From NCBI GenBank assembly GCA_020060525.1, contig JAGUZZ010000299.1, positions 1 through 30,435 on the forward strand: DNA of 30,435 nt, written 5' to 3'. Position 1 is the stretch's first letter. Every line of letters begins with the position of its first letter. Source of the stretch: a bacterium (GTDB lineage Bacteria > Krumholzibacteriota > Krumholzibacteriia > Krumholzibacteriales > Krumholzibacteriaceae). Below the pieces are notes generated by a model. The model ran no database searches, was not told the DNA's origin, and saw nothing but the letters and a program-made list of their open reading frames with translations. Positions 27,243 to 27,315 of the stretch are shown here, one piece after another. The position numbers and the translations under genes are program-made.

Positions 27243-27315
27243 TAGGGGAGGCAGGACTTGAACCCGCAGCCACCGGTTTTGGAGACCGACGCTCTACCAG
27301 TTGAGCTACTCCCCT
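27243..27315 (-). tRNA. tRNA-Trp (anticodon CCA), CCA end not encoded
   Basis: Minus strand AGGGGAGTAGCTCAACTGGTAGAGCGTCGGTCTCCAAAACCGGTGGCTGCGGGTTCAAGTCCTGCCTCCCCTA folds into a cloverleaf: acceptor AGGGGAG/CTCCCCT, anticodon loop CTCCAAA (anticodon 27282-27280), T-loop TTCAAGT. Confidence 0.97.

Follow-up and report, generated by a model that had tools for sequence, protein, structure and literature searches.

Introduction

A guanine discriminator base (G73) in tRNA-Trp, matched by Glu155 in the tryptophanyl-tRNA synthetase (TrpRS), is regarded as the rule that separates bacterial tryptophan systems from those of archaea and eukaryotes. In the E. coli co-crystal, Glu155 is joined to G73 by two hydrogen bonds; in silico, these bonds are lost with A73 and Glu155 clashes with the base, and both Glu155 and Gln152 are described as strictly conserved in bacteria (PMC12135181). 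[quoted passage not shown] The question is raised by a stretch of 30,435 nt from a member of the Krumholzibacteriaceae (GCA_020060525.1, JAGUZZ010000299.1, positions 1 to 30,435; hereafter the window), in which a preliminary description had noted such a gene and proposed that its tRNA, of hybrid identity, forms with the trpS gene behind it a co-evolved and possibly orthogonal pair. The relevant features are as follows.

27243..27315, minus strand: tRNA-Trp(CCA) gene (ARAGORN; Rfam RF00005, 69.8 bits), with A1-U72, A73 and an unencoded CCA end
27243..27243, minus strand: discriminator base A73, an A in 46/46 same-order genomes read
27177..27242, minus strand: 66-nt spacer beginning with a T-rich 3' trailer, T-rich throughout the order; presumably the site of 3' processing before CCA addition
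26151..27176, minus strand: trpS, encoding a bacterial-type, Thermotoga-like TrpRS of 341 aa (TIGR00233, 265 bits against a cut-off of 177)
26685..26687, minus strand: codon for Asn164, which aligns without gaps with Glu155 of E. coli TrpRS, the residue that reads G73
26694..26699, minus strand: codons for Glu160 and Ala161, aligned with E. coli Lys151 and Gln152; both sites vary widely in G73 organisms too
26343..26438, minus strand: C-x20-C-x6-C-x2-C motif in the sequence, perhaps binding a [4Fe-4S] cluster like that of T. maritima TrpRS
24511..26151, minus strand: tryptophanase-family lyase of 546 aa (NF009709, 449 bits against a cut-off of 285)
27347..27376, minus strand: sigma70-like promoter with extended -10, the putative start of the unit; a consensus match (9/12 positions, TG present)

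The tRNA-Trp gene and its surroundings

ARAGORN and Rfam find one tRNA gene in the window, a tRNA-Trp whose RF00005 cloverleaf carries a CCA anticodon. Base 73 is an A, followed by a run of T with no encoded CCA. By alignment, the acceptor pairs A1-U72, G2-C71, G3-C70, G4-C69 and G5-C68 are those of E. coli trpT, the canonical bacterial set, from which the gene departs in having A73 instead of G73; with the archaeal/eukaryotic identity set it shares A73 but has A1-U72 in place of G1-C72. The preliminary description had read these letters correctly: the programs agree on them, and the same 73 nt recur unchanged in the genomes of three other species. Together with the A73 of all the order genomes read, these identical copies rule out an assembly error as the source of the base.

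The placement of the gene directly upstream of its own trpS was likewise borne out. In the source genome, which is 81% complete, trpS is single and ARAGORN finds a single tRNA-Trp. The start codon of the tryptophanase gene overlaps the trpS stop codon, and the trpS-tryptophanase order is kept in nearly all relatives, in WOR-3 genomes and in an AT-rich genome considered below (L289). The nearest trpS relatives belong to Candidatus Krumholzibacteriota MAGs. The putative promoter ends about 31 nt upstream of the tRNA 5' end, and 2 promoter-like sites were found against 0.2 expected. No T-box or other Rfam element reached the gathering score at the locus, and the tRNA with its flanks folds no better than shuffled sequences. 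The tryptophanase-family protein (24511-26151) exceeds a typical TnaA by about 80 residues; compared with the profiles, it has an extension at the N-terminus and an insertion.

Distribution of A73

The phylum sample holds 52 genomes of the order Krumholzibacteriales, 50 of which gave a match. Base 73 could be read in 46 and is an A in all of them; the remaining 4 matches align through position 73. Wherever the contig is long enough, the tRNA gene lies just upstream of trpS. The preliminary description had allowed that A73 might turn out to be common in the lineage. At the level of the order it is; since the base is rare in bacteria overall, this commonness speaks for fixation and not for an artefact. 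The order represents one evolutionary event, so that the 46/46 count is not made up of independent observations.

Everywhere else in the phylum the base conforms to the rule: G73 was found in 22/22 tRNAs read from the six other families, where the gene lies between rpmG and secE in all 3 cases examined. G73 is also present in 123/123 Spirochaetota genomes with a match, in 26/26 tRNAs from the 24 genomes of a mixed other-phylum set and in every WOR-3 tRNA-Trp read. A scan that counted non-G73 matches revealed no A73 in 301 Chloroflexota and 301 Patescibacteria genomes, these denominators being genomes searched and not tRNAs seen. One tRNA-Trp-like match with C73 turned up in each of the two groups (L529, G380 in Patescibacteria; L533, G803 in Chloroflexota). 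Scanning metagenomes brought out A73 beyond the order: many phages, CPR cassettes and a few other lineages have it, some of these lineages at their main tRNA-Trp locus (the tRNA side only). Thus A73 is fixed in Krumholzibacteriales and rare across bacteria, but not unique to the order.

Several of these occurrences deserve mention in their own right. Phage tRNA-Trp(CCA) genes (viral contigs L403-L520) have A73 in many cases, often with A1-U72, and one of them (L475) adjoins a gene for a TrpRS in which Asp takes the place of Glu155. A hydrothermal lineage (L299, L302, L327 with the tRNA near 255-345, and L534), whose NusG cluster has a member labelled Campylobacterota, combines A73 with an encoded CCA at rpmG-secE. 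In a second A73-CCA lineage (L292, L317, L380, L396; also L346, L367, L394, L400) the tRNA gene has moved behind an endonuclease III gene in four loci.

One could envision that the A73 tRNA is an accessory copy, a poorly charged sensor or an extra in a tryptophan-catabolic cassette, with a G73 decoder elsewhere in the genome. The Microgenomates TrpRS-A/ORF1 operons provide a precedent (PMC5370408), and the tryptophanase linkage would fit, as would the PLP-dependent decarboxylase and tryptophan 2,3-dioxygenase genes near the Patescibacteria units described below. However, no second tRNA-Trp was detected in any genome of the order, near-complete ones included, and the rpmG-secE spacer is without a tRNA in 5/5 near-complete genomes. 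Nor is there an ORF1 or TrpRS-A gene at the locus, and one genome of the order (L045) has no adjacent tryptophanase yet retains both A73 and the Asn described below. We regard an accessory role as very improbable. The likely alternative is that the order has tRNA-Trp(A73) as its ordinary and only tRNA for decoding UGG, with the bacterial-type TrpRS encoded behind it as the charging enzyme. Extra matches in the order were considered as a possible second, G73 tRNA-Trp and discarded, having proved to be the same locus repeated at a contig end, and a gene for tRNA-Arg.

A bacterial-type TrpRS with Asn in place of Glu155

The synthetase scores above the cut-off of the bacterial profile and far lower with archaeal TrpRS profiles, has the bacterial fold and lacks an N-terminal A73-reading domain. 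Its best PDB match, by sequence and by fold (TM 0.89), is T. maritima TrpRS (2g36). This closest solved structure shares the four-cysteine motif, for which the published form is C-x22-C-x6-C-x2-C (PMC5370408), but it keeps Glu at the discriminator-reading position. The model built from an alignment (pLDDT 95) confirms the fold only; that built from the single sequence reached a pLDDT of 38. An archaeal-type or TrpRS-A enzyme was ruled out by the TIGR00233 score, the similarity to 2g36 and the fold search.

Where bacterial-type enzymes are expected to have Glu155, the window TrpRS has Asn164, within an ungapped stretch of the alignment. Asn occupies this position in 121/121 of the closest TrpRS homologues and in the enzyme of every A73 member of the order that was checked. 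The phylum's six other families have Glu (24/24), as do 135 of 148 TrpRS cluster representatives and all of 115 further homologues; the other-phylum Glu enzymes come from genomes with G73 in 24/24 cases with a readable tRNA. The replacement of Gln152 by Ala was dropped as a marker, since ordinary enzymes may have Pro, Ala, Gln or Ser there, with Gln kept in only 18/148 representatives.

The WOR-3 genomes and the question of orthogonality

Four WOR-3 genomes have, as their only trpS match, an Asn enzyme 66% identical to that of the window, with a tryptophanase gene behind it; their relatives have an unrelated Glu enzyme instead. The only tRNA-Trp detected in these four genomes lies at rpmG-secE and has G73. 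As sole TrpRS beside a G73 tRNA, the Asn enzyme would have to accept both bases, unless all four MAGs, which are incomplete, miss a second pair.

This bears on the reading by which the identity of the pair has been switched, with Asn164 (and Glu160) reading A73 and rejecting G73, and the pair fully or almost orthogonal in E. coli. The Asn amide should be complementary to the N1/N6 edge of adenine on chemical grounds, and Asn enzymes adjoin A73 tRNAs in four settings. The B. subtilis mutants K149E and E153K (Jia 2004) reportedly raise the affinity for human tRNA-Trp. Lys149 and Glu153 of the B. subtilis enzyme have been implicated in species specificity (PMC1538984), and the window enzyme differs at both sites. 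Yet an organism with G73 and Glu155 (L066) likewise has Glu in place of Lys149, the WOR-3 bacteria with the 66% identical Asn enzyme keep G73, the tRNA shares acceptor pairs 1-5 with that of E. coli, and the G73A change costs B. subtilis TrpRS only about 9-fold (PMC12135181). A switched identity thus seems unlikely to us.

Hence the earlier proposal fares differently in its two halves. Co-adaptation gains support from Asn164 throughout the order and Glu with G73 in the sister families. Orthogonality is at odds with the WOR-3 G73 tRNAs, the E. coli-like stem and the modest cost of G73A. An enzyme relaxed to A or G is predicted to charge E. coli tRNA-Trp, and E. coli TrpRS would be expected to charge the window tRNA some tenfold worse, but not to a level of zero. 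On these sequence-based grounds we see no support for orthogonality of the window pair, and would give it a slim chance of behaving orthogonally in E. coli. Its promise as an orthogonal tool for immediate use is smaller than the first proposal had it. Converting the tRNA to an amber suppressor would pose a problem of its own, as the combination of A73 and U35 invites mischarging by LysRS (PMC2965240).

Other lineages combining Asn and A73

A sister lineage of Asn enzymes (P0124; L263-L265) also adjoins A73 tRNA-Trp genes. In the AT-rich genome mentioned above (L289:2179-3870 / L530), two tandem A73 tRNA-Trp genes precede an Asn-type trpS, 74% identical to that of the window, and tnaA; the entire unit has probably been copied there by horizontal transfer. 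Patescibacteria-type contigs (L266:3302-6053 and L373:541-4387) have an Asn-type trpS with an adjacent A73 tRNA-Trp, which in L266 shows G1-C72/A73.

In a TrpRS tree built with the trait columns removed, the Patescibacteria Asn enzymes fall in a separate, well-supported clade of Glu enzymes. A single clade of all Asn enzymes is rejected (p-AU 0.013), a result of moderate weight given the long Patescibacteria branch. The Patescibacteria pairing of Asn with A73 therefore probably arose independently, so that the two rare traits would have come together about twice, each time at the same known contact.

These meetings are relevant to the idea that the association is a coincidence. Base 73 might be a modest determinant for Thermotoga-type TrpRS, in which case drift could have fixed A73 and Asn164 separately in the order's ancestor; in a variant, A73 perhaps dates from the relocation of the tRNA gene and the loss of its encoded CCA. 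A single ancestral event does account for the whole order, and A73 also occurs on other contigs with no known Asn enzyme and beside Glu enzymes in CPR cassettes. Moreover, one cluster inside the P0123/P0124 clade (P0426) carries Glu, so that the residue-155 site can flip. Chance is nonetheless hard to reconcile with the rarity of both traits (Glu in most cluster representatives, A73 in none of the Spirochaetota, Chloroflexota and Patescibacteria samples) and with their meeting in two separate TrpRS clades exactly at the crystal contact. The variant faces the further difficulty that the WOR-3 tRNAs also lack an encoded CCA, yet have kept G73. Taken together, we hold coincidence to be improbable.

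Two side observations concern these lineages. The L266 and L373 units also include a PLP-dependent decarboxylase gene, to which L373 adds one for tryptophan 2,3-dioxygenase; after the trpS-tryptophanase unit, this is the second instance of trpS grouped with genes for enzymes that likely consume tryptophan. In the Glu-bearing cluster P0426, a T-box-like leader (L537:820-1141) precedes trpS; judged by eye, its antiterminator bulge reads UGGU and would base-pair with A73, or with G73 through a wobble.

A possible history of the pair

The reading that we favor, and think likely, is that Asn164 relaxed the reading of the discriminator and let A73 become fixed, resulting in a co-adapted and probably relaxed pair; its basis is covariation. 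Glu, which accepts hydrogen bonds only, would read the N1-H and N2-H groups of G73. The Asn amide both donates and accepts and could contact A73 or G73, or might simply stop penalizing A. The Asn side chain, one carbon shorter than that of Glu, may make no contact with base 73. Identity would now reside mainly in the CCA anticodon and the shape of the acceptor stem.

The history might have begun with a foreign, Asn-bearing trpS-tnaA module that replaced the ancestral trpS. The trpS phylogeny is scrambled across the class, and grouping of the order's trpS with that of sister families f4, f5, f6 and f9 is rejected (p-AU <=0.002); the gene thus probably came, with tnaA, from outside. The tRNA gene, for its part, may be the native one, moved from rpmG-secE to the front of trpS. 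The nearest outside sequences of 3/4 order tRNAs tested are in sister families f8/f4 (4-7 differences), although the window tRNA itself has 7 differences to a Bacillota tRNA versus 8 to f8. Taken with the empty rpmG-secE spacer of the near-complete genomes, this affinity weakly suggests relocation of the native gene. A73 would then have been fixed once the enzyme no longer demanded G, possibly being favored if the amide binds adenine better. That Asn came first and A73 second is inferred from the WOR-3 genomes, the tree being unrooted.

Discussion

What is new here is a bacterial-type TrpRS with Asn at the Glu155 position, linked to an A73 tRNA; we found no report of such a bacterial pair in the literature covered, mostly openly available papers. 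A single order breaks the G73/Glu155 rule on both sides of the contact, and does so with a bacterial-type enzyme; the same change seems to have arisen twice. This would amount to a natural experiment involving one base and one residue, in which a permissive enzyme came first and the tRNA followed, with decoding kept throughout. In other respects the pair matches the canonical bacterial one, having the same bacterial-type fold and motifs, no N-terminal domain, a CCA anticodon, A1-U72 and G-C pairs 2-5. It differs in A73, in Asn for Glu155 and Ala for Gln152, and in the tRNA gene preceding trpS. Human TrpRS, for comparison, reads A73 via its N-terminal domain (PMC1538984).

A parallel is found in the tRNA-Trp(A73)-ORF1-TrpRS-A operons of Microgenomates (Mukai et al. 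2017, PMC5370408), where a bacterial A73 tRNA-Trp is likewise in operon with a TrpRS gene. There, however, the enzyme is archaeal-type and accessory, accompanied by ORF1 and a separate G73 pair, whereas the window has a bacterial-type enzyme as part of a sole, order-wide pair, with a spacer of 66 nt where ORF1 would be. Four CPR loci (L288, L297, L307, L381) consist of a tRNA-Trp(A73) gene, an ORF of 437-470 aa without a Pfam match and a Glu-type bacterial trpS; they resemble the ORF1 operons without having TrpRS-A and, to judge from layout, probably belong to that system.

An A73 tRNA co-located with a TrpRS gene is also known from phage HF2, as a TrpRS:tRNA(UCA) pair (PMC12636597, a preprint). 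The HF2 tRNA passed an orthogonality screen while its enzyme also charges E. coli tRNA-Trp, the same asymmetry that we predict for the window pair; HF2 differs in being a phage UGA suppressor as opposed to a cellular UGG decoder. Finally, the tRNA-His of Caulobacter and other alpha-proteobacteria, with A73 and no G-1, is a case of a bacterial lineage that has its own bacterial synthetase and converged on a eukaryote-like discriminator (PMC5370408). It involves another amino acid and synthetase class, and A73 proved to be a minor element.

From sequence, then, the window pair gives the impression of a tRNA-enzyme contact that has relaxed in nature, and not of a pair that is already orthogonal. 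Residue 155 is a possible handle for redirecting bacterial TrpRS. It is tempting, if rather doubtful, to go further and speculate that Asn-155 is a third, convergently evolved discriminator reader that contacts and prefers A73, and that the Krumholzibacteriales pair or its G1-C72 counterpart from Patescibacteria is orthogonal in E. coli or easily made so. If true, this A73 preference would provide genetic code expansion with a new Trp pair of bacterial type; of the two, the Patescibacteria pair (L266) would be the better candidate for orthogonality.

Residues other than Glu and Asn also occur at the Glu155 position, as shown by TrpRS clusters with Asp, Trp or Lys (P0155, P0158, P0273, P0274). 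Asp is found in TrpRS from a housekeeping context (L521, L522), and Trp in the representative of the cluster (P0273) to which a Zixibacteria TrpRS (L524:10001-11038) belongs. Lys is present in one of two tandem TrpRS-family genes (L526-L528:3921-6072); the neighboring genes, of radical SAM, AMP-binding and AurF-like types, give the locus the look of a biosynthetic cluster.
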